From a virus (Duplodnaviria > Caudoviricetes): a stretch of DNA of 64,000 nt. Under the pieces are notes generated by a model. That model had not been told where the DNA came from. It made no database searches and saw only the letters and a list, made by a program, of their open reading frames with translations. Where the stretch lies: the IMG/VR virus record IMGVR_UViG_3300037851_000284, positions 128,001-192,000 of that record; one strand, written 5' to 3'. Shown piece by piece: positions 17,246-46,679 of this stretch (position 1 is the first letter of the stretch; every line of letters begins with the position of its first letter). The position numbers and the translations under genes are program-made.

Positions 17246-18499
17246 TTAAGCTATACAAACACTAATAAGTCCTTGATCTGTATACCACTTAGATAAACTA
17301 TCAGCTCTTTGATTTTGAAATCTTAATACTATTTGATTTCTATTTATTTTATTAAAAATATCATATTCTCCATATTTAAATGACCTAGGAATAATATCAT
17401 CAACTCCTGCAACATCCATAGAAACATCTATTATCCTATTCCAAACTATCTCTCCTCCAATTGGGAGGTCGTTAATATATTGAATAATAGAACTTCTTAC
17501 CTGTTGTCTTATTATGTTTTCGTCTGTAACTCCAATAGAAGGCACTATTCCTAGGTCTAATTCTACTCCATAATAAGTTGGTCTATTTACATAAATAGTG
17601 TCACCATACGATAATTCTTGTTGTATTTTTTCTTGTACAGCATCTATCAATCCTTGAGATATAAGAGGAGAGACTCCATCTATTACTATATTTACTGTTC
17701 CATTACCAAATTTATTCTTTTCGAATAGTATATCTCGTATTCCAGGAACACTTAATGCTGCTCTTCTAATTGATAACTCGTTAGCTCTTATAGCACTTCT
17801 TGAGGTTGCTATTTTATATCTAAATTCTTCGTCGGTTAAAGAATATTTACCATTTTGAATAGGAAATCTGTTTGAACATTTAATATATTGGGAAATCTTT
17901 CTTAACTCAGGGATAGATGCTAACGTGTGAGCCACTAATACATTTGTTTGAACATTGGCTGCTGGACCAGAACTTGACGCTATTACTCCAACATAAGTAT
18001 CACTATTAGTTAAATGGGCAGCTTCTATAGTCGTATAAGATATTGTTCCATCAAAATTTTGTATTACAGTATCCTTAGGAATTATGATTTCTGTTGGTTC
18101 TCCGTTATTATCCAAACTCATAAATCCATTATTAACCAAAGTATTTCTTTCCACGTTTGTATAAGTTCTTTTAATCATAGGGGACAAACTCATATTTATT
18201 CTAGGATCTATATAAAAATAAAAGTTAGTCTTTGAGTAATCAGAAGGAGTTACGGCATCAGTACGTGTCTCGCCAACTAGATATCCTATTTTATCTAAAT
18301 CTGCTCCTGTTGCTCTGGTGGGATCAATAGCATTATAGATATACTCCATACTGTCATAATATCTTTCGAGTTCAAGACCAAGTATATCTAATAATGCTTT
18401 GCTAATGCCTTGAGCATTAAAATTATTTACAGGAGTATTCCTTTCAAGTCTAGTTTTTCCGTCTGTAACAACATCAATATAATTTCGTCTAACTGCCAT
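17246..18499 (-). CDS. Baseplate J-like wedge protein (417 aa)
   Basis: ATGADLDKIG, GPAANV, TDEEFRYKI, ALSVPGI and GGEIVWNRII motifs characteristic of Baseplate_J. Confidence 0.88.
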   Translation of the reverse strand: MAVRRNYIDVVTDGKTRLERNTPVNNFNAQGISKALLDILGLELERYYDSMEYIYNAIDPTRATGADLDKIGYLVGETRTDAVTPSDYSKTNFYFYIDPRINMSLSPMIKRTYTNVERNTLVNNGFMSLDNNGEPTEIIIPKDTVIQNFDGTISYTTIEAAHLTNSDTYVGVIASSSGPAANVQTNVLVAHTLASIPELRKISQYIKCSNRFPIQNGKYSLTDEEFRYKIATSRSAIRANELSIRRAALSVPGIRDILFEKNKFGNGTVNIVIDGVSPLISQGLIDAVQEKIQQELSYGDTIYVNRPTYYGVELDLGIVPSIGVTDENIIRQQVRSSIIQYINDLPIGGEIVWNRIIDVSMDVAGVDDIIPRSFKYGEYDIFNKINRNQIVLRFQNQRADSLSKWYTDQGLISVCIA

Positions 18500-19811: not shown

Positions 19812-22800
19812 TTAATATGCCCAAGGAACGATTTGTTTATATAAGCCGTAATCTTTTGGATTCCAACCAGTAGTAGCATTTGCTTTAAATATGTCTCTAT
19901 AAGCCATATATTGTGTAATCGGTTGGTCTTTCATATCGGCTACGTTATGGTTCATTAATGTTTTTAAACTGGTATAATCAATACCATCAAATCCTGCCAT
20001 ATAGGGCATTCCATGATATAATAATGATGTGAAATTAATACAATCCCTACCCATAATATGCCCCATTTGGTCAAAGACTGCTTTATGATATTTTTTAATA
20101 GTTCCTATAGTACTATTATATACCTGCGTAACAAAACCTAAAGCAAGATAAGCTGGCTCTAAAGGAAAAGCACTACTAAATATTGACCTAAAATTAATAA
20201 AATCATATATTTGATTAATAGTTTGAACGTCTTGTACCTGAACAGGGTCTCTATCGTAAGTAATTAGATTGGGAGTTATTACTGTTCTAAACCCCCTATC
20301 AGGAGTGAAAGTATGAATTACTTCTTCTACCTCAACAACTCCATGCGTGTCGTTTGTATAATCCTGTATATGTAATATATCAAATGGTTTAATTGCTGGA
20401 TTACCTATAATTTCTATAGTTCCTTGGTACATTTTTTCAACTTCGTTCTTTAATAGGTTAACTCCTACTACAACGAAAGAAGGAAATCTATCCCATCTAG
20501 GGATATTTATATCACCAGCATTAGAACTATTATCTTTAGGATTAAATTTTTCCCTATGATAATCCTCAAAGAATTTAGTAGTTTTGGAATGTATATCAAA
20601 CCAGTTAGTATCTATATTTTTTTGATAACTATTTAAAGGTCTAGATGATTCGTCCTTTTGTTCTCCAAAGGCTTTGACCGTCCATAGACTTAGTTTTTTA
20701 CTAATATACTCGTCGTCCATATTATCTAGACTTGCGTTTTTAATCTTAGGTTCCCCAGTATAATATACGTTAACTAAGTTAGAAAAGTTACTATTTAAAG
20801 ATATATTATTAGCTATTATATTAGAAGTATCAGTAACTAAATGATGTGTTTGAATTTTTTTATACTGAGGATTACTTAATAATCTCTTATCAGTATTTGA
20901 GAATCTGTCCTGAACAGCATAAAACAACTCTGGTGTAAGAGGAGGAGATTTTGCGAAATTCTTAAGTCCTATTCTACTTTTTTGGGTTAATCCTTCTCCG
21001 TGTATTATGTTTAAGAATAACGCTAATCTAGGACCATAATTATTTCCTTCAGAAAAATTATAAGTAGATAATTCGTTTTCTGGAATAGGAGGAAGATTAC
21101 CAAACTTTATTAGATTTCCAACTAATTTATTAGTAGACGTATCAATAATCTTATTATTAGAAACCATATCCATTAGATTACTATATATATCAATTGAAGA
21201 ACCAACAGCCTGTGTTTGACTTAAAACATAGGCCGCCATCACAAGACAATTTATTCGATTCTGTAAGAAACTATATAATTTTCTTCCATTAGGGGTAAGA
21301 GTTATAGTAGGAGTTAGAACAGTTGTATATAAATAACTAAATACTATAATTTGACCTTTGTCGTCTTTGATTAGCGAATCAAAAGATGTATTTACGGCTT
21401 TTATTGATTCCCAAGTCTTTATAGCTTCTTCAACTTCTCTTATATTTAAACTAGATATACTGAACGCATCAGTATATTTATAATATCCTGCTTTATCTCC
21501 TATTACTAAAGTTTCTCTAATATGATTATTATTTGATAACGAGTCGTCATTAAAAGATTTAACAGTAACAATTTTATTTCTATGATATAAAGTAATTTCT
21601 TTTAAAGCATCCCACACGCTTTGATTAAATACTACCCAATCAAAGGTAGGATGATGATATATGTTAGTATTAGAACTATAATTTAAATATATATTTTCGT
21701 CTCTTGGATTATCCTGAGCAAAAGTTAGCGAAGAGGTAGCACCAATAAGATTACTTAGTAATAATCTATCTCCGAATTTTCCCCTAACATTACGAATATT
21801 TTTTCCTGTAAATGGTTGAATTCCATTAGCTAGACCAAACATCTCTGTTTTACCAAGTTTCTCTAATCCAGGAATTAAATCAAGTATAGCGGAAGCTACA
21901 TCACCGTGTTCTCTAGATGTTGATAATAGACCGAATTTCTCTGCTACTATTTGATGATTAAGCTGGGCGCCAAAACTTTGACACACCAATTCTACATTAG
22001 GCCCATTGTTCATTTCTATTATTCTTCCTTGGAATACAGAAGTTAATAGATTATCATAGGGAGCATAACCCATTTTTATTATTATACCTGTTCCAGGTTT
22101 AAGGTCTAGTGTTCCAAAGAACAGATTATCAGGCTCGCCTTTTTGACCTATAGAGTAACCAAACAACTTCTCAGATTCTCTTAATAGAGACATTCTATCT
22201 GTAAGATTACCAGTAATGTTACTTAATCTAATAATAGCAGTAGTGCTCGGAGAATTTTTATTTGATATTATCTCTATAGACTGAATAGCATTATGAGTAT
22301 AATAATCATCAAAGTTTCTAATTAATCCTTTATCTTCTTCGACAAAAAAGATCTTAAAGGTAGGAAACATTTTAATAGTAGTATTTTTATTTAGGTTATC
22401 ACTATTATTAAAATCTTTTAGAATTTTAACTTTTCTATCATTTTCTTCTTGGGTTCTGAAATTCCAAAAATCTAGATAACCTATTTCTGGTATGGTTGAA
22501 AAATCTATATTTTGTTTACCATTTGGCGCAGCAACAGCGTCTTTAAGAACAGTATTTAATCTAATAAAAAACCCTATTTTATTGTACAAATAGTTTTCTA
22601 ATCTATAAATTCCAGGAAGAGCTACAAACTTTTCGTTATAAGTTTCAGCTAATCCATTAACATTTTGACTTCTTAAATGTTTTGCAATCTCTTTTTGTTC
22701 TTGAGTTATATTTTTCTTACTAGTATAATTTGTCTGTTCCAATAACTCAGAAGTCATATTTTCAGCATTTATTAATATGGATTCTATAACCGAATGTAGT

Positions 22801-25800
22801 TTTTGTATACTGGCTTCTTCCGTTGTACCCTTAGATAAGAAAGATTGATTATCATACTTAGAATCGGTTCTATTTGCCTTATTATTTTTATATAAAACTT
22901 GTTTAATTAAGGTATTTTTGTTAATCTTTTTAAGCATATAATCATTAATGACATTATAAACTTCCATTAATTCTATAAGAGTCTTCATTCTAGCAGTATA
23001 GATAAGATTAAATTTTCTAACATCCATGTTATCAGCAACTAATCCTTTAGAAGATTTTTCTAATTTAGCTTGTAGACGTTTTCTTTCATTAACATAATCT
23101 TTATTATTTTTATTGTTTTTATCGAAATCGTTTAAAATTCTTTGATTTACATCACTTATTATTTTCTGCTCGTTTACATTATTTTTACACATAGAAATAA
23201 CATCTCGTGTATATTTTAATATGTCTATTAATTGATCAATACTATCAGTATTAAACATAGTATTTAGATCTGATGTAATAATTTTTGAAGCAGAAGTTTT
23301 AACCTCGTCTTTTAGATTAGAAGAGTTGTTAATTAATTGATTATATCTACCCAATAACTCAGATGCTTCTGTAAAAGTCATCATAGCACATAATTTACCA
23401 ACCTTAGCATATCTCTTTAAAGAAGCATCAATATATATTCTCTTCTCGACTCCATCCATAATTGGATTAAATAAATAAAAATCAGGACCAATAATAATAT
23501 CATTATTATAAATTGGAATATCAAAGTCGTTATAACAATTTAGTGGAGTTAATTTTCTATTAGCTTCTATAGATTTATATGTTGGTTCTCCAACTATATC
23601 AGGAGTTATAAACTTATTATATACTGTTGGATCCCTTAAAATTTTCTCTGAAAAATCCCTGAATATATTATTAGCAAATTCATCTTCTAGTGAACTAAAG
23701 AACGAATCAAACTTATTGATTAATTTTTCCTTAACTTCTCCCTGTAAGGATTGGACAAATGTTTTTAAAAAAACATTACCTAAATAGTTTGAAAATCCTA
23801 ATACCGTTCCAAATATAGACAATTGAACGGCGTTAGGAGCTTTTAAATCGTGAGTAGCATAGTAAACCATCTTTTGGAAGAAAGTTCTATTTGGTTCGAT
23901 GATAAGTTTAATAGCTTCACTTTTTTGATAAAGCAATACATCAAGTCTTGATAATATATAATCAATTATTTTTCTAAATTCAGGAGAGTTAGAAACTAAA
24001 TTATTAATAGCTTCTGTCGAAATTGTATCTATTTGTTCTTCTATGTCTAATTGCTCTTTTAGACCGTTCTTTATTTTTTGAGCTGTTTCTGCTCCAATAA
24101 TCGACGACCACTGACTTGTTCCCGCTTGTGGAACCGTTGATGTTGAAGTATAAAAAGGAATAAACCTACTAATTCCTTTGGTAGCACTGCTTTCTTTTTC
24201 TGCTTGTTTAATATATTTTTCAATACTATCTCCATACACTTTTAAAAATCTTATTCTAACAAGTTCATTAAGAGTTAGTTGTAATTCTTCAGATTTGATA
24301 TTTTCCGGAGTTTTGGATTTCTTTAAATATTTTACTACCTTGAAATTTTCTCCATTTCTTTCCAATCGTGCTATTATATTAGCTATTTGTTCTACGGCTT
24401 TATCATTAGTGGGAACCCTAGATATATTGTGATAATCAGATATAGTAAAGTTAGCTTGCGTAAAATTTACAGTAGTATTCCACGAATTAGGCTGACCGTC
24501 TATAGTAACAGTATTAGAAGAATCAAATACTACTTTTTTTATACCAAAACAATTAAATATAAATCCTTGTCTTTCTTCGTTATTATCAGTAGGAGCAAAT
24601 ATGGTTAGTCTACTATCTAAATAGGTTGCTAATTCTGGAGCCGTCATCATTATAATCTTTATCGAGTCTCTTAGTCTTGTGGATAATAACGATAATTGGG
24701 TTTTTAAATCATCTGTAACATCTGGTTTTTCTGATGTAGAAGTTATAGATAATGATAATACAGCATCATCAGAACCTATATGCTGATAATAAGGTTGATC
24801 ATAGGCCTGTAAATTTATTGGTACAAATTTATTAGAGAATATTAAAGACCAATCGGTTATAATATCTTTTCTATTATCTATTTCTACTGTATATTCTTTT
24901 AATGGAAGCCTATTTACTTTAAAAATATCATTATCTGAGGAAGGAGAAATTACTAATAGATTAGAATCTTCTCCTGTAAATTCAGATATAATTGATTGTG
25001 CTATAATTTTCATACATGCTGAGAAGTCTTTTCTTCTCTGGCCTGTGGAATCAGCACTAATCCACTCGAATATTTTATTTATTTCAGCATCAAGAGTTCT
25101 TACACCAAACCCATTATCGATTCCTTTATTAACTGAGTTGTACGTTAATAAAGTTTTAAGTCCTACGGCGTCGCTCCCAGCCACTGAAAACTTCCCCTGT
25201 ATTAAATTCCAAGTATCTTGTGTTGCTTCCAACATCGGACTTAATCCAATTTTAGCTAATCCTCCTTGAATAAAATAATCCAGCAAGTTTCTTATAGGGT
25301 GATCGTCTTGAGTATCTAGAGTGATATTATATCTTGCTAAAATTTCTGGAATCTGATTAGTGATTGCGCTTATCTTAGCTGTATTAAATTCAAAAAAATC
25401 TTTTGTAGTATAAAAAGTATTTACTAATTCTTTCCATAATTCGTCTCTATTAGTTGTGGCATTATATAAGGTTGTTAATTCAGATAACAATCTTTCTTGT
25501 TCGGTCAATCTTTGTTCTGATATAACTTTACTTATTGTTGAAAAATCATCACTAATAGCTCTGTATTTAATATATACAGGAACTTTATTATCTTCCTCGT
25601 TATATTCGTGTAGTCTGTTTTCAGGATTAGTTGGTCTAAATTTTGTAATATCGTATGAAGATGATACTCTACTTCCATCACTAGAAACTGGGTATATAAC
25701 TTGGCCTAAATTGTCTTTTATCTCGGTCCTTTCTGCAATTAAGGATTGATAAAATGCCCTGAATGGTAGACTGTTTCTAAAATCATAATCGCTTCTAATA

Positions 25801-26861
25801 CTTCCTATAATTAAATCCGAAAACCTTTCTGGAACAACCGATTGTTCATATAATTTTGCTTCAGATTTTCTTATGATATCATCTAATTCCTTATTCCTGT
25901 ATAATAATGCCTGTTGTCTTTCGACATCTCTCATAGATAATAACGCGGAAAATTTTTCGGTGATTCCGCGACAATCAAAAGGAAGAATAGTAATTGCTGC
26001 TTGTAGGGTATTAGGAAATCCTCGTACAGATTGTATTTGTATACTCTCTAGAGCTATTGAAAGCCACTCATCTTCATGTAATAATGTTTTAAAGAAATTA
26101 CATATATCTTTGTTTCGAAGATTAACGAAAGGAGCGCGTCTATACATCGCGTATAAATTTAATAACTGATAATTAATTGAGTCTTGATTTGGAAATATAA
26201 GAGTTATAGATATATTTTTTACCTGTCCGACCGTCGGAATTTTAGGGTTACCTTGAGTTCTAATTGTCGGAAAATACTGGTATCCATTTTGAGTATTAAA
26301 TGATATTTGAGTAGGATCAACTAAAAATATTAAGTCTCCTATTTGGAGGGCACCGTCTCCTAAAGAATCAAAAATGATATCATTATCAGCATCTTGAATA
26401 CGTACTTCTTTTTCATCTAGAATTCTATGCGTTTTATTATCAGTACTTTGAACTATTTCCATTGATATTTTTTTAATTCTAGATTCTAATTTATCATCTA
26501 CAAGTTTAATAGGACGAATAACATTAAATTGTCTCATTCCGTCTACTATAAAATTATTTATTATTGAATCTGGTATTCTAGGCCATGTTGTCGGAGGTTC
26601 ATAAGGAACTGATTGAGTTACAACATAAAATTTATTTGCAACTAATATGTCTCCTCCTTGAATAAAATTAACACAAACTTTATCATATAAATTTACATCT
26701 ATTCCAAGATATTGTTTATAAACTTCAGTTATATAGTGATTTATATTTGTAGATTGAGTATTAGTATCATTACTTGAATAAGCGGTTTTAAGTTCTTTAT
26801 AAGGACTTTTATTTGTTAAAATGTAATTTAGAGTGTCGCCTATAACTTGTGGATCTATCAT
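19812..26861 (-). CDS. Giant baseplate hub-like protein (2349 aa)
   Basis: The C-terminal third has hub (gp27/gpD-like) patterns: IQSIEIIS...TAIIRLSN, LKPGTGIIIKMGY...VFQGRI..M...VELVCQSFG and GTIEIIGNPAIKPFD...VEEVIHTF...GFRTVITP. Confidence 0.65.
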   Translation of the reverse strand: MIDPQVIGDTLNYILTNKSPYKELKTAYSSNDTNTQSTNINHYITEVYKQYLGIDVNLYDKVCVNFIQGGDILVANKFYVVTQSVPYEPPTTWPRIPDSIINNFIVDGMRQFNVIRPIKLVDDKLESRIKKISMEIVQSTDNKTHRILDEKEVRIQDADNDIIFDSLGDGALQIGDLIFLVDPTQISFNTQNGYQYFPTIRTQGNPKIPTVGQVKNISITLIFPNQDSINYQLLNLYAMYRRAPFVNLRNKDICNFFKTLLHEDEWLSIALESIQIQSVRGFPNTLQAAITILPFDCRGITEKFSALLSMRDVERQQALLYRNKELDDIIRKSEAKLYEQSVVPERFSDLIIGSIRSDYDFRNSLPFRAFYQSLIAERTEIKDNLGQVIYPVSSDGSRVSSSYDITKFRPTNPENRLHEYNEEDNKVPVYIKYRAISDDFSTISKVISEQRLTEQERLLSELTTLYNATTNRDELWKELVNTFYTTKDFFEFNTAKISAITNQIPEILARYNITLDTQDDHPIRNLLDYFIQGGLAKIGLSPMLEATQDTWNLIQGKFSVAGSDAVGLKTLLTYNSVNKGIDNGFGVRTLDAEINKIFEWISADSTGQRRKDFSACMKIIAQSIISEFTGEDSNLLVISPSSDNDIFKVNRLPLKEYTVEIDNRKDIITDWSLIFSNKFVPINLQAYDQPYYQHIGSDDAVLSLSITSTSEKPDVTDDLKTQLSLLSTRLRDSIKIIMMTAPELATYLDSRLTIFAPTDNNEERQGFIFNCFGIKKVVFDSSNTVTIDGQPNSWNTTVNFTQANFTISDYHNISRVPTNDKAVEQIANIIARLERNGENFKVVKYLKKSKTPENIKSEELQLTLNELVRIRFLKVYGDSIEKYIKQAEKESSATKGISRFIPFYTSTSTVPQAGTSQWSSIIGAETAQKIKNGLKEQLDIEEQIDTISTEAINNLVSNSPEFRKIIDYILSRLDVLLYQKSEAIKLIIEPNRTFFQKMVYYATHDLKAPNAVQLSIFGTVLGFSNYLGNVFLKTFVQSLQGEVKEKLINKFDSFFSSLEDEFANNIFRDFSEKILRDPTVYNKFITPDIVGEPTYKSIEANRKLTPLNCYNDFDIPIYNNDIIIGPDFYLFNPIMDGVEKRIYIDASLKRYAKVGKLCAMMTFTEASELLGRYNQLINNSSNLKDEVKTSASKIITSDLNTMFNTDSIDQLIDILKYTRDVISMCKNNVNEQKIISDVNQRILNDFDKNNKNNKDYVNERKRLQAKLEKSSKGLVADNMDVRKFNLIYTARMKTLIELMEVYNVINDYMLKKINKNTLIKQVLYKNNKANRTDSKYDNQSFLSKGTTEEASIQKLHSVIESILINAENMTSELLEQTNYTSKKNITQEQKEIAKHLRSQNVNGLAETYNEKFVALPGIYRLENYLYNKIGFFIRLNTVLKDAVAAPNGKQNIDFSTIPEIGYLDFWNFRTQEENDRKVKILKDFNNSDNLNKNTTIKMFPTFKIFFVEEDKGLIRNFDDYYTHNAIQSIEIISNKNSPSTTAIIRLSNITGNLTDRMSLLRESEKLFGYSIGQKGEPDNLFFGTLDLKPGTGIIIKMGYAPYDNLLTSVFQGRIIEMNNGPNVELVCQSFGAQLNHQIVAEKFGLLSTSREHGDVASAILDLIPGLEKLGKTEMFGLANGIQPFTGKNIRNVRGKFGDRLLLSNLIGATSSLTFAQDNPRDENIYLNYSSNTNIYHHPTFDWVVFNQSVWDALKEITLYHRNKIVTVKSFNDDSLSNNNHIRETLVIGDKAGYYKYTDAFSISSLNIREVEEAIKTWESIKAVNTSFDSLIKDDKGQIIVFSYLYTTVLTPTITLTPNGRKLYSFLQNRINCLVMAAYVLSQTQAVGSSIDIYSNLMDMVSNNKIIDTSTNKLVGNLIKFGNLPPIPENELSTYNFSEGNNYGPRLALFLNIIHGEGLTQKSRIGLKNFAKSPPLTPELFYAVQDRFSNTDKRLLSNPQYKKIQTHHLVTDTSNIIANNISLNSNFSNLVNVYYTGEPKIKNASLDNMDDEYISKKLSLWTVKAFGEQKDESSRPLNSYQKNIDTNWFDIHSKTTKFFEDYHREKFNPKDNSSNAGDINIPRWDRFPSFVVVGVNLLKNEVEKMYQGTIEIIGNPAIKPFDILHIQDYTNDTHGVVEVEEVIHTFTPDRGFRTVITPNLITYDRDPVQVQDVQTINQIYDFINFRSIFSSAFPLEPAYLALGFVTQVYNSTIGTIKKYHKAVFDQMGHIMGRDCINFTSLLYHGMPYMAGFDGIDYTSLKTLMNHNVADMKDQPITQYMAYRDIFKANATTGWNPKDYGLYKQIVPWAY

Positions 26862-26864
26862 TAA

Positions 26865-27047
26865 TTATTCCTTAATCTTGTCTATATTAACAGGATTTAT
26901 AGAAATAGGGTCATCGACTTCCCTAATCGAAATTACTGTTTCTAATCCAGTAATATTAGATACTTGATCTTTAATAGTTTTAATATAGGTATTATAATCT
27001 ATTCCGTCAGGTAAGTCTATGATAATAGAGGCTCTTATAGAACTCAT
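26865..27047 (-). CDS. Small hypothetical protein (60 aa)
   Basis: Fills the gap between two giant genes, coupled at both ends. Confidence 0.5.
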   Translation of the reverse strand: MSSIRASIIIDLPDGIDYNTYIKTIKDQVSNITGLETVISIREVDDPISINPVNIDKIKE

Positions 27048-30000
27048 TATCCATATTTCCTATCCAATTGTGATGAACCAAAGCTTGGTATACTTGTAGT
27101 ATAGTTAGAATATATAAGGTTCGGCTTTGTTTTCCACTCATTTAACAACGGGTTAGAATTACTATAAGAGTTCTTTAAGATATTATTTATTATATTACTA
27201 CGTTGTTTTTTATCATTCATTTTGTTTAATCGTATAAATGCTTCTTTTGAGAAGGAAGCATTAACGGTGTCCAAAGGAACCCGTCTATCAAGTTCTAAAT
27301 CAGATAGTATTCCGTTATGATTTCCATTAATATCAGAACCTAAATCAACAAACCCGTCTAGAGGATTTAATGAATTAGACATTTGGTTTGGTCTAAAAAA
27401 ATTAGCAGCTAGAAATACTGCCGCTCCTATAGCTCCAAATTTTCCAGTAGTTTTAGTAAAATTAATTGCTCTAGGATATTCTCTTAGAATCCTTGATCCA
27501 AAGCTTTCTGCTGCCTCATTAAAATTAATGTTTTCATAAGGCTCGCCTATTTTAAGTTTATCTAATATACTAATAGCTTTATTCAGTTCTGTTTGTTCAC
27601 TAATCCAAGCCTTTGATTCTCCCTTTGTTCCAAACTTTTGATGATATTTTATTATTCCTTCAGTTAATAGTTGATGAGCCTTATCTCTTTCTTCGTTTGT
27701 TTCAAAATAATCAGATAAGATATCCTTTAACGCTAAACGTGTCTCTGGATTTTTATTATATGGATTTGTTAATGCTGCTACTGCTAAAGAAATTCTCTTA
27801 ATTTTATCGACTCCGTGCTTAATCATGCTAATTGGTAGTTGTTCCATTCCAGCCAATCCAGTAGTTAATGATGTTCCTATAAACTTATTTAAAGTAAGAG
27901 TGTTATTTTTAGATAAGCTATCCATCTGCATTATTTGTCTACCTCTGGTTTCTAATATATTTGTGAATATACCAACTGCTCTTTTAGAAACAGACATCAA
28001 GGCTGATTCGTCCACCATCTTTTTAACTATATCATTAGTAACTACACTTGGATCCCTAGTTGAAATTTTTTCAACCATATCTATTAGATTTCTAAAGTTT
28101 CCTTTAATAGCATCTTCTGCGTCTTGACTTCCTAGTTCTACGGTTTTCTCGCTAATTCTTCCCGTTTCTCTATCAAAATATCCAACTCTAGCTTTTGAAT
28201 TTTCAAAACCAATAATTTTTCTTTGTTCACTTATAGCATCTCGAACCGTTTTAAATTTACCGTTCTCTTTTATCTTAGTATTTAATATATCAATAAATGA
28301 CCTGTTAACAGATTCGTGTAAGTTTAACAATTCTTTTTCTGTATTAAAAGCATGTACCACTCCAAACATTTGGTCTCCGTCAACGTCTCCTCCAACCAAC
28401 TTCCAATATTCTGCAGCAACTGCTATTCTATTAATATCCATTCCAAAATAACTTGCTATTTCTTTAGGAACAACATTGAATCTAGCTGTTAAAAAAGGAT
28501 TGGTTCCAGAAGGAGTATAAGGAGGACGAGTAATAAAACCAGTAAATTTTCTATGCATCCATGCTCTATTTTTAATTTCAGAACCGAACACATTACTTAT
28601 TCTATCATAAAAATTTTTGGTTTGGAGAAATTCAGATTCTTTAACATCAAATTCGAACTTTTTAAAAGTTTCTTCATGAACCATAACATCATGTAGTGAA
28701 AAGTCATTAACTACGTTTCTAGTCCACTTATCTAGAAACTCTGCGTGCTTTCCTTTAAATCCTCTTGCTCCCCAACCTTCAGAATCCATAATATCTTTAA
28801 GTCTTAAATATAAAGAATTAGCATCTTGAGCAGAAGCAGCAAACCCTTGAGGAAGATGGAGGTCTGTTTCAGAATTATATACATGCCTTAGTAAATATGT
28901 AAGATATTGTTTTTTAAGGAAATCTACAGATTCGCCAACAACCTTAGAATCTTCTTTTTTCATATTTTTTTCTGCCATCATATATGCAAGAAGAACATCA
29001 TCCATTAATTTAGTACTTCTGGTAGAAAATCCAAAAGCTGTTCCCTTTTTATTCTCCTTAGATACTAAGTTAATAACATTTTCGTGATGAGCAGGAGCTT
29101 CCATTAAAAGATATTTTAATTTAACAGTCTTATTAGTTTTATCAACTTCTGCTACAAAACTATCTTTCTTTTTCTTTAGTTTATCAAAGATATTTAATAC
29201 TTCATCCGTAGATGGCAATTCGTCTTTTGTGGCAATTTGATGTAACAAGCTCTCTATATCTAGAGTTATTGTATTACCTAATTTAGGATTAACTGATAAT
29301 GCAAACACTCCTTTCTTTTGAGCTAACATAGCTCTTTGTTGCGCCGATTCTAAAGACATAATAGTTCTGTTCTTGGGATCTATTACGGCTTTAGCAAAAT
29401 TATCATTCTCCATATCATCAATTATTTCTCCAGCAACCTTTAACTTTTCTTCTTCAGAATTCTCATTAATAATATCAGATACTTTTTCAATTAATTCATT
29501 TTTTTCATCGTCTCCAAAATTATATCTTTTAAGTGCTTCTAACGATAATCCTTTTTTAATATCTAATATATCATCTATCTCCTCCAGACTTAACGTTTTC
29601 ATTGTGCCAATATTAATCATTTTTAACTGGAGTCGCCTAAAGGATCTAATAGCATCTCCAAGTTTACCAGATATTCTATGTGCTCTAGCCATTTCTATTA
29701 TCTTTAAAGAAGTAGTATCTAATGCTCCCAGATGGGCTTTTTGTAATATATTTCTTCTTACTTTTATACGCGCGGGTCTAGCTTCAGTCCCATTCATTAT
29801 AGCATAAAAACTAAATCTATCAGGATGTTCTATTCCTATATCCCATTTTCCTCTACCTTTATATTTCTGTCTTGCCTCAAATAACATAGGAACTAATTTA
29901 CCTGTTCTAATAGCTTCTAAATCCGGTAAGATTAATTCATTATAGAAAGTATTATCGAAAGCTTTGTCCTTAAAAACGGCGCTAGCCAATCTAGCTGATT

Positions 30001-33000
30001 TGTTTTCGTCTTTAGATATTTCTTCAAGATAATTATTATATATGTTGCGTATGTTCTTTTTAGCGTTTTCTACTCCACCTAAAGCATTATAATAATTTTC
30101 TGCCCTTTCTGTCGTCCAAACTTGTCCAGTATCGATCATGAAAGATCTTAATTCTTCAGTAGTTAGAGAAACGTTTCCAAAGAATTTATGAGCAGCATTA
30201 ATCAAATTAACATCAGTAACGTTAGGAAACGAGCCAAGATGCGACGACCGATGTATAGGTATTTTGGTTATATCATGTATATCGGAATTCATCTTTGCCG
30301 CCCAATATTTAAGCTTTTGTTCGGCTACTACTTGTTCTTGAATAGTACCGTTTTCCATTACATTCAGCAAGTGGTCAAATCCCTTCATAACAGTAATGGT
30401 TTTCATTGGTCCAACATAACCCTTCTCTAGAAACTGGGCTGGACCAAATCCCTGCACTCCACCATACATTTTTTCTCGGGTAATCATATCCATGAATACA
30501 GATACTGCTTTACCACTAAGTCCTTTACCAACCATTGATACCCTATCTTTATCCGTGATAACATATTTGATATCAGCCATCATTTTAATAGAACCAGCAC
30601 TATCATTCCAGATATTTAATTTAGTAATTCTTCCATTAACAGGAGCATTAAAACTAATTTTTCCCAAATCTCCTCTCGAAGCCATATACTTTGTTCCCTT
30701 TGGAATTTTTGTAAGTCCTTCGTTTTCCTGTATAACTTCATAAGCCGCATAGTCATAATCGTCCTTGGTTAGAGCACTACCTTTTTTACTTTTAATTACT
30801 CTTAACTTTTCTTTAATCTTTCCCTCAAGTTTAAGAACTTGATAATTAAAACTAGGATCCTCGGCCCTAGAAGAAACATCAGAAAGATTAACTCCTATAT
30901 CAGTATGCTCAAGATTAACATCTTTAAATATTTCAGAAGTAAGATGATGTCCTCCTTCTTGGCTTCCAAAGTTAGAAATAGTTGAAAAATATTTTACCAT
31001 AACTGTATTACTAAATAAATGAGTCATAGCATCTGCGTCTCTGCCAAAACTCATAAAGTCTAATTCTCCTCTAGATATCCATGGAGGGATAATCTTACGG
31101 GCATATTTTCTTAACACGAGAGGATCTAATCTTTCATTCATGGATTTGCTATGTAGACCAGCGACTACAGCAGAAGTTCCCATCATAAATTGGTTAGCTT
31201 GTTTTGCTGGAGGATAATCTGGAATGGGTAAAAAATGTCTAGTAGTAAATATAGAGAAAGCATATTTAGCCGCTTGACCAGAAGATAATGCTGTAGAAGA
31301 AGGAATAAATCCAAATAAGTTTGTCATTTCTATATCTCTAGCATCTTTTATTTGGTCGTCAAACGACTTAAATGCGTGATAAGAATTATATTTATATTCT
31401 AACTCTTCATATGCCGAATCAAATTGTTTTTTTCCTTTATGATATTTTTCCAATTCGTGACCTAATAATAAATGTAATAACATACTGTCGGTTCCAGCAT
31501 CGTGAGCAAATAGAGTTTTGTCATTATTTAATTTTTTTAATAAGGCAGTACTAACCACTAAATTACTTTGTGGTCTACCTCTCAAAGTATTTATTGCTTC
31601 TATAATATTATTACTTGTTTCAAAATTATGAGCAGATAAACCTTTTTCTTTCATCATTAGCTTTAATAAATTAGTTTGAGACAATGACTCTACTCCACCA
31701 ACCACTACTCTATTAATTTCTACAATTCCATGAACGTCTATATGACTAATATTAGCATATTTTTTAAGTTTGCTAAAACCGATGGGGTCCTTAGATTCTA
31801 AAATTTCAAGCATTTTGAAATCGTAATAGGTTCCGAATTTAGAAGTAAGATATATAGGTTTGTCAGGATTTTCTTCAACAACCCTGATTATTTTTTCTAC
31901 CAAATGTCTTGCGATATCGTTGTTATCTTTAAAATCTCTTCCCTGAGTTTTTGTTAACGATTTTATTTTTTCTCCCCATTTGTTAATAATATCTTCTGGG
32001 GATCTACCTCTTAATTCATTTTTTTCTTGAGCACTAAGATATGTATCTCTTATCCATTCTGCCTGCTCCATATCAAATGGAAGCTCTTTCATTTTATCAA
32101 CACCGTGACTGCTAAAAAACTTTTGCATATCATGTAAAGTTACTTTTCCAGTAGAACTAATATCTGCCACTGAAAATCCAGCTTGAGTTATTTGTGTATG
32201 AGCGTCAGTTATTTGAACATTGGGACCAGCTTTCTTATTAGAAATAGTTTCTAAGTCCACACTTATTACCAGAGCCCCATCAGTTAATCGAGCTAGTCTT
32301 TTGAATCCTTGTAAGTCTTTTAGGTTATTACCCCATTTTAATTTATTAGATACTCGCTCATCCCTATAATAAAACATTCCTTGTTTTATTGGGTCTCTAT
32401 TAGTTGTTTCGATTCTACTAGCAACCTCAAGAGTATCTCTCATTATAAAATTAAACCTACTAAAAGCATGTTCTGGGTTATATTTAAAATCACTAGATAG
32501 ATTGCTTTTTATATACCTAATCAAATTTCTTATAGTAGCCTGTGTCATATTCATATAAGGCATTTTTTTATTTATAGGCGCAGGGTCAGGAATCTTAACA
32601 TCATATTTTTGAACTCCATATGGAGATGTTGCTGGTAATATTCCATATTGAGCCAAAGGAATATTTAAAACTTTTTCTTTCCCTCGAGCAACGTGTTTTG
32701 CTGAAAATCTCAAATAATATCTGGGACTCTCCTTAGGACCATCTTGAATTATAGCTAAACTATGAGATTCAAATCCATTATCTTCGGTAGCTATTTCTTC
32801 CAATGCTGCCATTAAACTTTTAATATCATTGGTATAATCAAATTCTCCTAATAACTTAAATTCTGGCGTAATTGGAATAAATTTCCTACTATATAGAGAT
32901 GAAGATGTTACTGGTTTTCTTTTTAGTTCTTCGTTTGATAATACGGTTTTAACTTTATATTTATTTATTTTCCCAATATAGCGAAGATTAGCTCCTATAT

Positions 33001-33799
33001 TTCTATTGGTTTCTCTAATATTTGTATAAAGCATTAACTGTTTTGTTATTTCAGGAGTAATAGAAAATAGCTTACTGGTAGTATTATAAGCCACTATATT
33101 ATGATTATAATTTGCTTTAAAAGAGGTTAATCTTCTAATATACATATCTGCTAAATCAGGATCTTCTCGAGTATATAAATCAATTAGTTTATTTAATTTG
33201 ATACCGTCTTTATCGGGGTCATTTAATAGTTGTAATTCTTTTCCGTGTCCTTCGCTTATATACGGATTATGTAAAAAATAATTCTCCAGAATATCTTTTC
33301 TTATTTCAAATAACATACTATCTTTATTCATTTTAATAATAGATAAGTATGCTTTAGGGTCATTAACTTCTCCAATGTTTGAAAAAGTTATATCGTCTTT
33401 CATTTTAGATAATATATCGTCTTCTATAGTAGATATTTGATTTAATTTATTAGTTCTTAAAGTATTGCCAATCCCTCCTTCTGGATAGGCATTTCGAGCC
33501 GGAGAAATTTTTTCGATCACTCTATCTATCTCGGTTTCAGGTTGGAATGACCTAAAAGGTAAATCTAATGTAGCATTAGGTCCAAGAATTCTTTTTTGAG
33601 AATCAATACGTTTATAATCTTCTCTTTCGATTATTCTTTTTGCGTTACTATCATGAATCCGGTTTATAATATCTTTAGCTGGCCCCTTCATTTTATGAGC
33701 AGCAAACACGAGACCAGACAATACTCCAACTTTTAATAATGTTCGAGTAAACCACCCTTCGTTCTTATCATTTTTATTATCTGGATAATATTGGTTCAT
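27047..33799 (-). CDS. Putative single-chain two-barrel (DPBB) virion RNA polymerase with N-terminal DEDDh exonuclease (2250 aa)
   Basis: FITRPP...IAVAAEYWKLVGGDVDGDQMFGVVH (D1805/D1807/D1809) matches beta-prime NRAP...[12 protein letters not shown]. Beta-like segments lie near 30420-31010. DEDDh motifs: VDLET (D515/E517), YYD (D660), AHDAGTD (H766/D771). Confidence 0.65.
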   Translation of the reverse strand: MNQYYPDNKNDKNEGWFTRTLLKVGVLSGLVFAAHKMKGPAKDIINRIHDSNAKRIIEREDYKRIDSQKRILGPNATLDLPFRSFQPETEIDRVIEKISPARNAYPEGGIGNTLRTNKLNQISTIEDDILSKMKDDITFSNIGEVNDPKAYLSIIKMNKDSMLFEIRKDILENYFLHNPYISEGHGKELQLLNDPDKDGIKLNKLIDLYTREDPDLADMYIRRLTSFKANYNHNIVAYNTTSKLFSITPEITKQLMLYTNIRETNRNIGANLRYIGKINKYKVKTVLSNEELKRKPVTSSSLYSRKFIPITPEFKLLGEFDYTNDIKSLMAALEEIATEDNGFESHSLAIIQDGPKESPRYYLRFSAKHVARGKEKVLNIPLAQYGILPATSPYGVQKYDVKIPDPAPINKKMPYMNMTQATIRNLIRYIKSNLSSDFKYNPEHAFSRFNFIMRDTLEVASRIETTNRDPIKQGMFYYRDERVSNKLKWGNNLKDLQGFKRLARLTDGALVISVDLETISNKKAGPNVQITDAHTQITQAGFSVADISSTGKVTLHDMQKFFSSHGVDKMKELPFDMEQAEWIRDTYLSAQEKNELRGRSPEDIINKWGEKIKSLTKTQGRDFKDNNDIARHLVEKIIRVVEENPDKPIYLTSKFGTYYDFKMLEILESKDPIGFSKLKKYANISHIDVHGIVEINRVVVGGVESLSQTNLLKLMMKEKGLSAHNFETSNNIIEAINTLRGRPQSNLVVSTALLKKLNNDKTLFAHDAGTDSMLLHLLLGHELEKYHKGKKQFDSAYEELEYKYNSYHAFKSFDDQIKDARDIEMTNLFGFIPSSTALSSGQAAKYAFSIFTTRHFLPIPDYPPAKQANQFMMGTSAVVAGLHSKSMNERLDPLVLRKYARKIIPPWISRGELDFMSFGRDADAMTHLFSNTVMVKYFSTISNFGSQEGGHHLTSEIFKDVNLEHTDIGVNLSDVSSRAEDPSFNYQVLKLEGKIKEKLRVIKSKKGSALTKDDYDYAAYEVIQENEGLTKIPKGTKYMASRGDLGKISFNAPVNGRITKLNIWNDSAGSIKMMADIKYVITDKDRVSMVGKGLSGKAVSVFMDMITREKMYGGVQGFGPAQFLEKGYVGPMKTITVMKGFDHLLNVMENGTIQEQVVAEQKLKYWAAKMNSDIHDITKIPIHRSSHLGSFPNVTDVNLINAAHKFFGNVSLTTEELRSFMIDTGQVWTTERAENYYNALGGVENAKKNIRNIYNNYLEEISKDENKSARLASAVFKDKAFDNTFYNELILPDLEAIRTGKLVPMLFEARQKYKGRGKWDIGIEHPDRFSFYAIMNGTEARPARIKVRRNILQKAHLGALDTTSLKIIEMARAHRISGKLGDAIRSFRRLQLKMINIGTMKTLSLEEIDDILDIKKGLSLEALKRYNFGDDEKNELIEKVSDIINENSEEEKLKVAGEIIDDMENDNFAKAVIDPKNRTIMSLESAQQRAMLAQKKGVFALSVNPKLGNTITLDIESLLHQIATKDELPSTDEVLNIFDKLKKKKDSFVAEVDKTNKTVKLKYLLMEAPAHHENVINLVSKENKKGTAFGFSTRSTKLMDDVLLAYMMAEKNMKKEDSKVVGESVDFLKKQYLTYLLRHVYNSETDLHLPQGFAASAQDANSLYLRLKDIMDSEGWGARGFKGKHAEFLDKWTRNVVNDFSLHDVMVHEETFKKFEFDVKESEFLQTKNFYDRISNVFGSEIKNRAWMHRKFTGFITRPPYTPSGTNPFLTARFNVVPKEIASYFGMDINRIAVAAEYWKLVGGDVDGDQMFGVVHAFNTEKELLNLHESVNRSFIDILNTKIKENGKFKTVRDAISEQRKIIGFENSKARVGYFDRETGRISEKTVELGSQDAEDAIKGNFRNLIDMVEKISTRDPSVVTNDIVKKMVDESALMSVSKRAVGIFTNILETRGRQIMQMDSLSKNNTLTLNKFIGTSLTTGLAGMEQLPISMIKHGVDKIKRISLAVAALTNPYNKNPETRLALKDILSDYFETNEERDKAHQLLTEGIIKYHQKFGTKGESKAWISEQTELNKAISILDKLKIGEPYENINFNEAAESFGSRILREYPRAINFTKTTGKFGAIGAAVFLAANFFRPNQMSNSLNPLDGFVDLGSDINGNHNGILSDLELDRRVPLDTVNASFSKEAFIRLNKMNDKKQRSNIINNILKNSYSNSNPLLNEWKTKPNLIYSNYTTSIPSFGSSQLDRKYG

Positions 33800-43232: not shown

Positions 43233-45542
43233 TTATTCGGACCAAATATTCTTAGGATATTGAGTCTCTTTAGCAGCTTGATAATCCTGATTTAGTTTAT
43301 AAATATTTGGAGTACTTTCAGGTGTAGTATAGTTTTTATTAGTTTGCATTTTTAACGTTTCTACCATCTCGTCCCTAGGTAAATTTTTTATTTTAGGAGG
43401 GACATAAGGAGGATTAGGTTTTACTTCGTTTCCATAGTTATACCCATATGGAGTAGGTGTTGTGTTTCTATATCCTATTCCTAGATTTCTTCTTATAGTT
43501 TTTTCAAACATTACAGGAGAATAAAACTTTTTCTCCGATTGTAAGTGATAGTGGTCGTTTATATAATCTACGCGTGTACCAATTTCAATCTTTTGTCCCA
43601 CTTTTAAATTTTTCGTATATGAACTAGGAATATGAGCGTATCTTACTACACCTTGATTAGTTCTAATGCTAAATGATTCTTTCCCTATTGAATAAACTTC
43701 TCCCCCAAAAGCAGCAGGAGCATAACCTGCTGTTTTTGTTATATTATTCTTTTTTATTATATTACTTATATCTGCGAAAACATAATTACTTTTTCCAGCA
43801 CTCAATGGATGTTCATCAGCCCTAGTAAAGTGAGTAATAGTTGTTCCAGTAATAGCAACTCCAGTTTCTGAACCATCGCTGGTCATATCTGATGCTTTTG
43901 GAACAATATTCTTTTTCTCTGTATTGGCTATTTGTTCTACTTGTTTTAAAGCTTCAGCTTCATTTCTAGCCTCTGCTGAGTTTTCTTCAAATATAGAAAG
44001 AGAATAATTTGGTGCGGGTTCTTGTTTAGTTTCTACTTCTTTAATCTTATTTTTTTCTCTTTCTTTAGGAGTTAAAGATTCCTGCTTAGGAGCGCTAGGT
44101 GGTTTTCCCCAGAATAAATCTTCTCTAGATAATAGGTTGGTTGCTTTAAATCCTGTTCTGGTAGGAGATATTACTTTAAATGTGTATGTATCTGGGATTC
44201 TTTGTTCTAATATCATGGTAATTTTTTCATCAGGAATAGTAGTATTACCATTTAAATTACCAAAAGTAGTAGCGACTATGAGTTGAGAATACCTTGATAG
44301 GTTTACAGGATCTGTATCAGTTACTTTAGCATTTATTACATTCTCAACAAAAGAACTTAATTGGTCTATAAATGGAGTGACTTTATTATAAGAAAAAGAT
44401 AATTTACTAATAACTTTATTCAAAGGTTTCCAGCCATTGTTACGTAAGAAAGATGCCTCAGTAGCAACAGTAACATAAGTTCCTTGTTTATCATCTAGGA
44501 AGTTCTCAAGTTTTTCTATATCTTCATATTTTGATAATTTACTATCTGTTCTGACAGAAAGTTTAACTGGATTTAATCTTATTACACTATTTGAGCTTGT
44601 AATACTATCATTTATATCCCTAGCTATAAAAGTGTACATTTCTCCAATGGGGTCTCCAGTTGGGGCAACTATTAAACTATTACTGGTAAAATGAACATCG
44701 TTTAATATTATTACTGTATGTTCCGCCCTATAATCATTAATATCTCCAAAGGTTAACATTATATTTAATACATTAGCATAACTTCTACCTTTAGCTGTTA
44801 TTATACCACCGTTAGTTTCATGATAATCAAACTCGTCGGCTCTTTTAATCTTATTCAAAAGAGTAAGCTGCTTACCATTCTGGTCTCCCCATATACTATC
44901 TTCTAATATTTCGGCAAAATCCTCAAAATCTCTATTCTCACGATCAAAACCCATATCTTGACTCAAACTGGTAGAAATCTTTTTACTAGATAATATTTGT
45001 TCTATAGTTTGACCTTGTCGTATAAAGTTTGGTGTTCCATCAAGATTATAAACCGCTTCAACTTTAGTACCATCTTCGTTTATAGTAGTTAATCCAGGAA
45101 CGAACTCTTGTTTATCTTGCAGCTCATCAGAATAAGATTTTAACTTTCTCTGAACTGCTTCAGCTTTATTTTTCCTTTGAGAATCTATAAGAGCTTGAAT
45201 TATATTTAAATAACCAGTTTCTTTAAAGGCAATAGCTAGATTACCTTCTACTATTACCTGTCCCTTAGCTATAGCATCAAAGTTCTGAGAAGCATACCCA
45301 TAAATAGGAACTTTAGATTGAGTAACATTATATTGGATAGTAATTATATCATCCACCCAGACATCACCAAAAAATATCTTACAGTCAGTTCCTGCAAAAT
45401 AATCATACGGATAAGTTTGATAGTTATCTCTAAATGCCGTTGCTGAAGTAAATGGGTCTTTAGATGAACCGGAAAAACTCTTAGCCTGTTTTTCCTGCAT
45501 TGCGGTCTTAGTCTGCCTTAATTGATTTTGTAAGTCTACCAT
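43233..45542 (-). CDS. Tube-like (tube initiator) domain fused to a C-terminal M23-peptidase-like domain (769 aa)
   Basis: The N-terminus aligns with the tube paralogs (FAGTDCKIFF...IQYNVTQSKVPIYGY; MYTFIARD). The C-terminus has AFGGEV, RYAHI...LKVGQKIEIG...DHYHLQ. Confidence 0.55.
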   Translation of the reverse strand: MVDLQNQLRQTKTAMQEKQAKSFSGSSKDPFTSATAFRDNYQTYPYDYFAGTDCKIFFGDVWVDDIITIQYNVTQSKVPIYGYASQNFDAIAKGQVIVEGNLAIAFKETGYLNIIQALIDSQRKNKAEAVQRKLKSYSDELQDKQEFVPGLTTINEDGTKVEAVYNLDGTPNFIRQGQTIEQILSSKKISTSLSQDMGFDRENRDFEDFAEILEDSIWGDQNGKQLTLLNKIKRADEFDYHETNGGIITAKGRSYANVLNIMLTFGDINDYRAEHTVIILNDVHFTSNSLIVAPTGDPIGEMYTFIARDINDSITSSNSVIRLNPVKLSVRTDSKLSKYEDIEKLENFLDDKQGTYVTVATEASFLRNNGWKPLNKVISKLSFSYNKVTPFIDQLSSFVENVINAKVTDTDPVNLSRYSQLIVATTFGNLNGNTTIPDEKITMILEQRIPDTYTFKVISPTRTGFKATNLLSREDLFWGKPPSAPKQESLTPKEREKNKIKEVETKQEPAPNYSLSIFEENSAEARNEAEALKQVEQIANTEKKNIVPKASDMTSDGSETGVAITGTTITHFTRADEHPLSAGKSNYVFADISNIIKKNNITKTAGYAPAAFGGEVYSIGKESFSIRTNQGVVRYAHIPSSYTKNLKVGQKIEIGTRVDYINDHYHLQSEKKFYSPVMFEKTIRRNLGIGYRNTTPTPYGYNYGNEVKPNPPYVPPKIKNLPRDEMVETLKMQTNKNYTTPESTPNIYKLNQDYQAAKETQYPKNIWSE

Positions 45543-46633
45543 TCTCTAGTAGTTGTTCCTATTGGTGTGTTTACAGCATGACTTATATAATCATTTACAC
45601 TGGTAGCAACCCCATTATCAAGACTTCCCTGAGCATTCCAACCAGTCAAAGTTCTTTGTTTAATCTCTATTTGGTTATTAATGGATTCTAATTCTTTATA
45701 TAATCCTGTTAGTATTTTTAATTGTTTATCTTTCTCTCTCTTTAAATCTTCTCTTGAAACATAATCTTTACCATTAGCTAATCTATTTAGCCATTCCGAT
45801 GCATAAAAAGTAAACGCTCCAGCCACTGCTCTTTTATTAGTTTCTTTATCTATCTCAGCTATAATAGTTTCACAATCAGTAATATCTTGTTGAACTTTCT
45901 TTTGATAATCCATAAGAGCAGAAAATTGATTATCAATAAATAATCCTTTAACTTGTCTTTCAAACATCATATCTTTAAATTCCGCAATATCTTTATAAGC
46001 TATCATCTGGTCCATATCTTTAGCCACATATTGCATAGTACATTCACTATATAAATCGTTAATACTATGGACTTGACCCTCATCTAGAAATTCTACACCA
46101 TATAGTCTGGTAATTGAACGATGACCATATTCATTTTGAAATAATAGTATTAAATCAATAGGAGGTAGTTGGTCGGGTAAAGGAGAAGTGGTCCTATCCG
46201 AAGGATTCTTAATATAATTTAATTCTTTTATAACATCATAAAGTGGGGCTCTATCAAACACGATAAATATCATACTTCCCGCAATTGTTCTTGGACCAGC
46301 AGTATATCCTTTTGCGTGGGAACGACCTAAAACCCTTACAGCTGATTTTTCCCTATGAATAGAGTGAGATATAGTTTCTAGATTACCTAGAACTATAAGT
46401 TTATTATTAAGCTGAGCTATTACTGTACAGTCGCTGCCACTATAAGAAGTATTAGATTTACTAAAATCTATTAAAGGGTCAGCATCAAAAGGATTAGCCT
46501 CGGTAGGACCAAGGGACCCTCCAAGATAAGGTTGGGTAGAACCTAACAAATTAGTTTTAACTTGTTGGACCACGTCTTTAACAAATGGGTCTTTTTTTAA
46601 TTTATTAACTTGTTTATCTAACCACGTTGACAT
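45536..46633 (-). CDS. Tail tube paralog (tube initiator-like, 365 aa)
   Basis: GNLETISHSIHREKSAVRVLG...AGSMIF..FDR...DQLPP...NEYG...GVE...EG...SINDLYSE..MQYVA aligns end to end with the spliced tube protein. Confidence 0.75.
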   Translation of the reverse strand: MSTWLDKQVNKLKKDPFVKDVVQQVKTNLLGSTQPYLGGSLGPTEANPFDADPLIDFSKSNTSYSGSDCTVIAQLNNKLIVLGNLETISHSIHREKSAVRVLGRSHAKGYTAGPRTIAGSMIFIVFDRAPLYDVIKELNYIKNPSDRTTSPLPDQLPPIDLILLFQNEYGHRSITRLYGVEFLDEGQVHSINDLYSECTMQYVAKDMDQMIAYKDIAEFKDMMFERQVKGLFIDNQFSALMDYQKKVQQDITDCETIIAEIDKETNKRAVAGAFTFYASEWLNRLANGKDYVSREDLKREKDKQLKILTGLYKELESINNQIEIKQRTLTGWNAQGSLDNGVATSVNDYISHAVNTPIGTTTREW

Positions 46634-46646
46634 AATTTTTAGGTAT

Positions 46647-46672
46647 AAAGCCCTTGTTTTATTAAGGGCTTT
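46647..46672 (-). terminator. Hairpin terminator after the tail tube gene
   Basis: Inverted repeat AAAGCCCTT/AAGGGCTTT directly after the exon 3 stop. Confidence 0.6.
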
Positions 46673-46679
46673 ATTTTAA

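Follow-up and report, generated by a model that had tools for sequence, protein, structure and literature searches.

P0001, a protein of 2250 amino acids (aa), is encoded by a giant gene in a 64,000-nucleotide stretch of viral DNA (hereafter the window), which corresponds to positions 128,001-192,000 of the IMG/VR record IMGVR_UViG_3300037851_000284 (Duplodnaviria; Caudoviricetes). P0001 is a tail-module protein of an uncultured jumbo myovirus with a contractile tail, and structural modelling indicates that it joins a 3'-5' exonuclease to a single-chain RNA polymerase (RNAP) core of the cellular type. It is very nearly certain that P0001 carries a fused DEDDh exonuclease, and very highly probable that it is homologous to the two-barrel RNAPs and has kept its catalytic residues intact. 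Moreover, with a probability of roughly two in three, the protein would be built into the virion and injected for transcription of the first phage genes. A virion RNAP had been read into this gene in an original prediction, made from the DNA letters and a list of open reading frames (ORFs). The 2250-aa ORF at 27047-33799 on the minus strand is indeed real, and the strings quoted from its translation, FSLHDVMVHEETFKK, FITRPP and IAVAAEYWKLVGGDVDGDQMFGVVH, are all present in it, with DVDGD (D1805-D1809) mapping exactly to 28387-28373. The exonuclease domain upstream of the polymerase was absent from that reading. Over the whole protein, the domain order is DEDDh exonuclease, beta-like half, clamp-like connector and beta'-like half.

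Polymerase and exonuclease domains of P0001

The polymerase part of P0001 (residues 880-2010) was modelled with AlphaFold2, template-free, from 21 sequences, which resulted in a predicted local distance difference test score (pLDDT) of 76.8 and a predicted template modelling score (pTM) of 0.65. When this model was compared with the Protein Data Bank (PDB), Foldseek returned at least 474 matches at E<=1e-3, the best with an E-value of 2.4e-6, and its top 50 were all largest RNAP subunits (beta'/Rpb1/A190 chains), in agreement with the beta'-barrel reading that had been proposed for the DVDGD region. In VIA comparisons against 48,161 representative chains, two-barrel polymerase chains held the first 19 places, with Z scores of up to 10.9 for beta-type and up to 9.0 for beta'-type chains. 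In each of the structural searches, the 50 best matches listed for the polymerase part were all RNA polymerases, and PolD was not among them. Moreover, the best ESM Atlas match was a phage cluster whose members carry PF00623 and PF00562.

According to VIA, the beta-like half (P0001 residues ~899-1341; model residues 20-462) can be superposed on the C-terminal half of beta/Rpb2, which holds the barrel, with Z scores of 9.3-11.4 against beta/Rpb2-type chains from bacteria, archaea, eukaryotes, African swine fever virus, vaccinia, phiKZ and AR9. These include E. coli beta residues 694-1243 (Z 11.4 over 269 residues; root-mean-square deviation (rmsd) 4.4) and the phiKZ non-virion RNAP (Z 11.4). 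The strings that had been taken for a beta barrel, NTVMVKYF...GSQEGGHHLTSEIF (residues ~931-958) and SFNAPVNGRITKLNIW...DRVSMVGKGLSGKAV (residues ~1050-1099), were located at about 31010-30500, and VSMV-GKGLS-GKAVSVF falls inside the beta-aligned region and carries a conserved R/K...K pair. The beta'/Rpb1 alignments run from the N-terminal clamp (model residue 512, chain residues 14-21) through the active site, covering P0001 residues ~1391-2010, and the archaeal RNAP clamp 3qqc_A was aligned over 135 residues within model residues 499-762 (VIA, Z 6.2). In addition, isolated double-psi beta-barrels (DPBBs), namely Cdc48-N and designed DPBB proteins, match model residues 772-937 in VIA (rmsd 2.4, Z 7.4), with 86 of 86 residues aligned, at these same values, for the designed 7dww_A. 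On the basis of these matches, barrel A was delimited as P0001 residues 1651-1816, with DVDGD at its C-terminal end. In the model, DVDGD forms a loop between a helix (917-923) and a strand (931-936, QMFGVV), within a block of pLDDT 77-87. Rigid VIA alignments across both barrels were obtained with QDE-1 (Z 9.6-10.1, 299-301 residues), gp62/gp64 (259-273 residues; Z 10.0 for P74-26 gp62) and P23-45 gp96 (Z 8.4, 277-282 residues). Overall, the template-free model contains the double-psi barrels that had been anticipated: a beta'-type barrel A ending in the triad loop, which is predicted to bind metal, and a beta-type barrel B, in the canonical mutual arrangement (pTM 0.65).

As to viral structures, the best matches in BFVD were A0A8S5SD80, A0A7R7G2L5, A0A172Q021 (Acinetobacter phage ME3) and A0A075BUT7 (Microcystis phage MaMV-DC). 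These entries are segments of giant proteins, uncharacterised or named 'minor tail', and two of them come from cultured phages. These giants may belong to the superfamily of P0001 as remote relatives.

An exhaustive HMMER search of 1.84 billion representatives retrieved 21 P0001 homologs sharing 22-36% identity, almost all of them 2230-2380 aa long, and IMG/VR contigs of 44-230 kb yielded seven further loci of the family. Neither the 19 full-length homologs nor these seven loci, down to 16-20% identity, show any change in the D-x-D-x-D triad; the Asp triad singled out in the original prediction is thus kept in every homolog aligned and every locus added. In the full-length alignment, most members read DFDGD at this site, P1760 is invariant and R1758 nearly so, these being the 'TRPP' counterpart of the beta' R-x-P motif, while N1790 and K1126 are invariant or close to it. 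D.DGDQM arose in one of 20,000 composition-preserving shuffles of P0001. Among the long-ORF proteins of the 219-kb genome, P0001 is the only one in which D.DGD has RNAP-like surroundings; three more D.D[GAS]D matches fall in unrelated proteins, one of them a 112-aa frame. Based on both model and alignment, P0001 is predicted to be active as a catalytically intact single-chain two-barrel RNA polymerase.

Residues 1-900 were modelled with a pLDDT of 71, and Foldseek matched this model to RNase T, TREX2 and PARN. For residues 501-805, VIA gave Z scores of 12-13.7 to Exo I, the DinG exonuclease, 3'hExo, Pol III epsilon and TREX1-like chains. Residues D515, E517, D660, H766 and D771 (D-x-E / D / H-x4-D) are invariant in 19-20 homologs, and of the further loci, all those covering the domain retain this DEDDh pentad (L007-L011 and L013; L012 is truncated there). 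The invariant pentad together with the fold matches identifies a DEDDh 3'-5' exonuclease, with Exo I, II and III residues on a predicted RNase H-like fold, for which a Pfam search gave no match. The domain has the same fold and catalytic residues as RNase T, TREX1/2, Exo I, Pol III epsilon and 3'hExo, but unlike these exonucleases it is embedded in a 2250-aa polymerase protein and has an insertion of ~100 residues. Altogether, eight catalytic residues (the three Asp and the DEDDh pentad) are invariant across proteins sharing 16-36% identity, which indicates selection on catalysis.

Proposed virion delivery and rival explanations

We then considered P0001 in its genomic setting. The IMG/VR record comprises 219,054 bp, is rated 95% complete and has a GC content of ~31%; in the window, the minus strand carries nearly all genes, which make up the structural module. 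A sheath gene (49473-52238) and a baseplate J/wedge gene (17246-18499) were identified, so that the phage is contractile-tailed, as had been claimed. Three giant ORFs lie between them, of 2819 aa (hereafter giant 1), 2250 aa (P0001) and 2349 aa. Three unrelated contigs share one gene order, namely a ~182-aa gene, an intein-bearing giant, the P0001 family, a ~60-aa gene, a hub-like giant, a ~255-aa gene, a gp25-like gene and baseplate J. P0001 starts 2 nt after the stop codon of giant 1, and its own stop codon is overlapped by the ATG that follows. Moreover, the best-conserved parts of P0001 are its N-terminal 50 and C-terminal 150 residues, each of which holds a hydrophobic segment.

P0001 is also devoid of cysteine over its 2250 aa, when about 29 would be expected from the genome average of 1.28%, and its homologs contain 0-4 each. 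In giant 1, the exteins have no cysteine in 2026 aa, and the inteins have 22. We infer that this avoidance reflects selection on proteins that cross the envelope unfolded. Synteny, translational coupling, the hydrophobic conserved termini and the zero cysteine count make it quite likely that P0001 is packaged in the virion, whichever the route.

In the mechanism that we propose, P0001 would be expressed with the tail genes and become part of the virion, where its most likely place would be the tape-measure slot, inside the tail lumen or next to it, alongside the cysteine-free giant 1. Upon sheath contraction, the cysteine-free P0001 would be expelled through the tail tube, largely unfolded, and would refold at or in the cytoplasmic membrane or in the cytoplasm, where its hydrophobic N- and C-terminal segments could act as anchors. 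With the entering DNA as its template, the refolded enzyme would read the first phage genes, and later genes would be served by host RNAP redirected by the phage sigma factor. The exonuclease would most plausibly trim RNA 3' ends, in proofreading or backtrack rescue, or ready the DNA end as first template. Elsewhere in the genome, beyond the window, lie genes for a family B DNA polymerase and a sigma-70 region-2 protein (genome positions 68479-70917 and 76419-76625). PF00623 and PF00562 are absent from the genome at E<=10, and profile and motif searches found no other RNAP. A DNA polymerase and a sigma factor with no other RNAP would fit an injected polymerase for the first genes and host RNAP for the remainder, a scheme that has been proposed for P23-45 (PMC10770324). 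A more detailed version remains tentative and rather doubtful: the cysteine-free chain would thread the contractile tube and refold at the membrane, the exonuclease would proofread RNA or resect the entering genome end, and the polymerase would start without a promoter and help to pull the DNA in. If true, P0001 would be the first RNA polymerase that carries its own 3'-5' exonuclease and is delivered, in unfolded form, by way of a contractile tail.

Several results weigh against P0001 being an injected virion RNAP. Neither P0001 nor six of its sub-segments had a significant match in PHROGs, Pfam or PDB sequences, and a profile search against the PDB touched beta' only at the DFDGD site (E ~3). 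As no significant sequence match was obtained, the RNAP assignment depends on a model from a shallow alignment of 21 sequences. No cultured relative was found either, as tblastn searches with P0001, P0007 and P0020 against 50,697 GenBank phage records gave no match; word-indexed homolog searches returned the query itself alone, and a single-sequence scan of viral contigs returned nothing. In addition, no shared early-promoter motif emerged from exact k-mers and intergenic k-mer enrichment, which gave only Shine-Dalgarno sequences and tRNA T-arms. The T-arm repeat, GGTTCAAATCC, has 11 intergenic copies on the plus strand, those mapped lying at ~14-36 kb. Furthermore, the length ruler would be either giant 1 or P0001. 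Finally, a folded polymerase of ~1100 residues cannot fit the tail tube, and this is why unfolding and refolding are assumed in the mechanism above.

A protein with the same activities could also be carried in the capsid, as an internal or ejection protein of the kind found in N4, crAss-like phages and phiKZ, in which case the place in the tail module would reflect gene order only. Head packaging is the rule for well-studied virion RNAPs except P23-45 gp96 (PMC13282480; PMC10770324), a capsid suits a folded multi-domain enzyme better than a tube does, and the P0001 model is globular rather than an extended helix. Nevertheless, we consider this explanation unlikely, given that all contigs examined strictly keep the slot between tube/chaperone-like genes and the hub, and that conserved hydrophobic termini and a tightly kept length, here 2234-2378 aa, typify proteins of the tail lumen or proteins that are ejected. 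Translational coupling within the tail operon also argues against a non-virion RNAP, made late, used inside the cell (e.g., for late transcription) and never packaged, and so does the phage sigma factor, which implies use of host RNAP. Such an enzyme would suit a phage in whose genome RNAP searches revealed no other polymerase of its own, but hydrophobic terminal segments would be odd in a soluble cytoplasmic enzyme, and cysteine avoidance is common to P0001 and the neighbouring giant and not to the remaining proteome, so that this explanation appears decidedly unlikely.

A different function was considered as well, since PolD is a two-barrel enzyme that makes DNA (PMC10770324). P0001 could be a PolD-like DNA polymerase or primase, injected to repair or complete the genome end, with the DEDDh domain as a classical proofreader. 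It is true that DEDDh domains normally partner DNA polymerases and that editing domains of DNA polymerases are among the best matches of the exonuclease, yet the polymerase-part matches in the listed top 50s are all RNAPs, none of them PolD, and the phage has a family B DNA polymerase of its own; we thus regard a DNA-making enzyme as very improbable. It is hardly credible that P0001 is a structural tail or tape-measure protein in which the polymerase and exonuclease folds are inactive relics: its position in the tape-measure slot and the 'minor tail protein' annotation of its BFVD relatives would agree with such a role, but the invariance of the eight catalytic residues would not. Injection of P0001 as a virion RNAP is accordingly the explanation that we retain.

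Features of P0001 and its neighbouring genes

The features of P0001 and of the genes flanking it are collected in Table 1.

Table 1. Positions of P0001, its domains and motifs, and the adjacent genes in the window.
Feature	Position	Strand	Basis or remark
P0001, predicted exonuclease-RNA polymerase giant, 2250 aa	27047..33799	-	ORF list and translation; 21 HMMER homologs
N-terminal hydrophobic helix, aa 16-35, then conserved K36-x-x-G39-P40	33695..33754	-	Predicted helix; W16, K36, G39 and P40 (nearly) invariant
N-terminal helical and alpha/beta region, aa ~100-480	32360..33502	-	Model pLDDT 70-90 over most of it
DEDDh 3'-5' exonuclease, aa ~501-805	31385..32299	-	Invariant pentad; Foldseek and VIA
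Beta/Rpb2-like module, aa ~899-1341, double-psi barrel B with candidate sandwich-barrel insert	29777..31105	-	VIA Z 10-11.4
Connector and clamp-like helical region, aa ~1378-1641	28877..29668	-	Beta'/Rpb1 alignments start here, at the N-terminal clamp
Beta'-type double-psi barrel A, aa 1651-1816, with R1758-P-P1760 and N1790	28352..28849	-	DPBB match
Predicted metal-binding triad D1805-V-D1807-G-D1809	28373..28387	-	Invariant; loop in the model
Two long helices after barrel A, aa ~1892-1960, candidate bridge-helix region	27920..28126	-	Model DSSP H1013-1035, H1043-1081
C-terminal module, aa ~2100-2250, hydrophobic segment ~2120-2136	27050..27502	-	Column conservation
Upstream giant 1, 2819 aa	33802..42261	-	Same position in L002 and L004
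Conserved 60-aa ORF	26865..27047	-	ATG overlaps the P0001 stop codon
Downstream giant, 2349 aa, enlarged baseplate-hub or lysin-like	19812..26861	-	Collinear with phrog_20474, three segments

Fold searches with the N-terminal model (residues 1-900) were dominated by the exonuclease domain. In the beta-like module, QEG (947-948), R/K1092...K1097 and KGYVGxxK (1126-1133) are conserved. The string DRVSMVGKGLSGKAV forms a strand-loop-strand at residues 1089-1102 (model strands E210-213 and E218-223), and a strand-loop-strand with two basic residues is the arrangement expected for the barrel-B basic loop of the beta subunit. Of these candidate barrel-B basic residues, R/K1092 and K1097 are conserved in most but not all members, and K1126 is nearly invariant. 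Moreover, weak sequence matches to barrel-sandwich-hybrid domains at residues ~1000-1100 suggest that the beta-like barrel may hold a flap-like insert of the cellular/phiKZ type. The long helices after barrel A, which are followed by a conserved G1975/G1981/Q1987/K1994 motif, are a candidate for the bridge-helix region in the model. Mean column conservation reaches 0.59-0.61 in the C-terminal module, as compared to 0.28-0.49 over the remaining protein, and the residues invariant there are A2126, F2135, S2141, S2143, D2152 and S2182-F-S2184.

Giant 1 contains two LAGLIDADG inteins, at residues 1155-1539 (38799-37645) and 1776-2183 (36936-35713), each of which begins with Cys and ends in HN followed by Ser. 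Directly after the second intein lies a Cas4-like PD-(D/E)xK nuclease (residues 2209-2340). The exteins total 2026 aa, and the giant 1 homologs in L002 and L004 are also intein-bearing. When the Atlas was searched with the N-terminal part of giant 1, no usable match came back. A gene of 59-60 aa occupies the same position as the 60-aa ORF in L002, L003 and L004, and no family match was found for the ORF. The downstream giant is hub-like, which agrees with the hub-gene neighbour initially proposed: it has a weak hub match (phrog_4930), and phrog_20474 is a 1954-position profile of hub/lysin-type giants. A heterotrimeric ruler of related chains was also considered and rejected, as the three giants proved not to be paralogous.

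On the minus strand, the region 45536-49207, which lies just downstream of the sheath gene, contains two genes resembling homing endonucleases (48149-49207 and 46834-47667; phrog_4645). They are interleaved with ORFs at 47681-48127, 45536-46633 and 43233-45542, all of which match the N-terminal part of phrog_9206 and could represent a tube-like paralog set invaded by mobile endonucleases.

Comparison with known systems

The closest published precedent is P23-45 gp96, a tape-measure-fused virion RNAP (PDB 8H2M/8H2N; Chaban et al. 2024, PMC10770324). Like gp96, P0001 is a predicted single-chain two-barrel RNAP with a DxDGD loop, has its gene in the tail module of a phage with a long tail and contains hydrophobic segments of the membrane type. 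With hhalign, gp96 FRNP...N..EY...DFDGD was placed on the RxP...N...DxDGD columns of the family (P 4.7e-4, probability 32%), although overall sequence similarity to gp96 is not significant. The two proteins also differ in several respects: gp96 belongs to a siphovirus, spans 5002 aa, carries its polymerase at the N-terminus and is clampless and flat, whereas P0001 belongs to a myovirus, spans 2250 aa, carries its polymerase in the middle and C-terminal part and has a clamp-like region as well as the DEDDh fusion. Moreover, Pfam searches found no metallopeptidase domain in P0001, unlike gp96, which sets it apart from the gp96-type tape-measure-fused class, and its genome has no second (non-virion) RNAP, as opposed to the P23-45 system.

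As to multisubunit enzymes, the best scores for the beta-like half were obtained with phiKZ (7ogp_C/8que_C, Z 10.9-11.4), AR9 (7s00_C, Z 9.6) and bacterial beta (Z 10.9-11.4). The cellular, phiKZ and AR9 RNAPs consist of 4-5 subunits, whereas P0001 is one chain without Zn-binding cysteines, in which beta is missing its N-terminal half and beta' its C-terminal half; it also has an exonuclease fused to it and is encoded in a tail module. The Pfam search gave no PF00623/PF00562 signal for P0001, and no PF05183 match, a feature similarity of 0.80 being the only trace of the latter. P0001 resembles crAss-like phi14:2 gp66 (PDB 6VR4), a single-chain two-barrel virion RNAP of ~2180 aa encoded beside other giant virion proteins; when the P0001 family was compared to gp66 with hhalign, the same site was aligned without significance (P 0.14). 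However, gp66 comes from a podovirus and is packaged in the head, and enzymes of the gp66, QDE-1 and YonO types have no exonuclease. Compared to these types, P0001 appears, according to the model, to have beta-type flap and clamp features.

Neither a comparative survey from 2021 (PMC7824862) nor a jumbo-phage review from 2026 (PMC13282480) mentions a single-chain RNAP in a tail module or an exonuclease fusion. A full-text literature search for the combination of tail-module RNAP and exonuclease gave nothing relevant, and no publication describing the P0001 family was found. The family explains giant genes that current annotation tools leave blank as 'hypothetical' or 'minor tail', and as a minimal cysteine-free beta-beta' fusion, P0001 could serve to study what a two-barrel RNAP core needs. 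With P0001 comes a further question, namely how an enzyme of 250 kDa could travel through a tail tube and regain its fold. Self-delivered transcription is known from N4, crAss-like phages, phiKZ-like phages and P23-45; if our interpretation is true, contractile-tailed jumbo phages with a cellular-type single-chain polymerase in the tail module would be added to these, as the first case in which the polymerase is coupled to an exonuclease.

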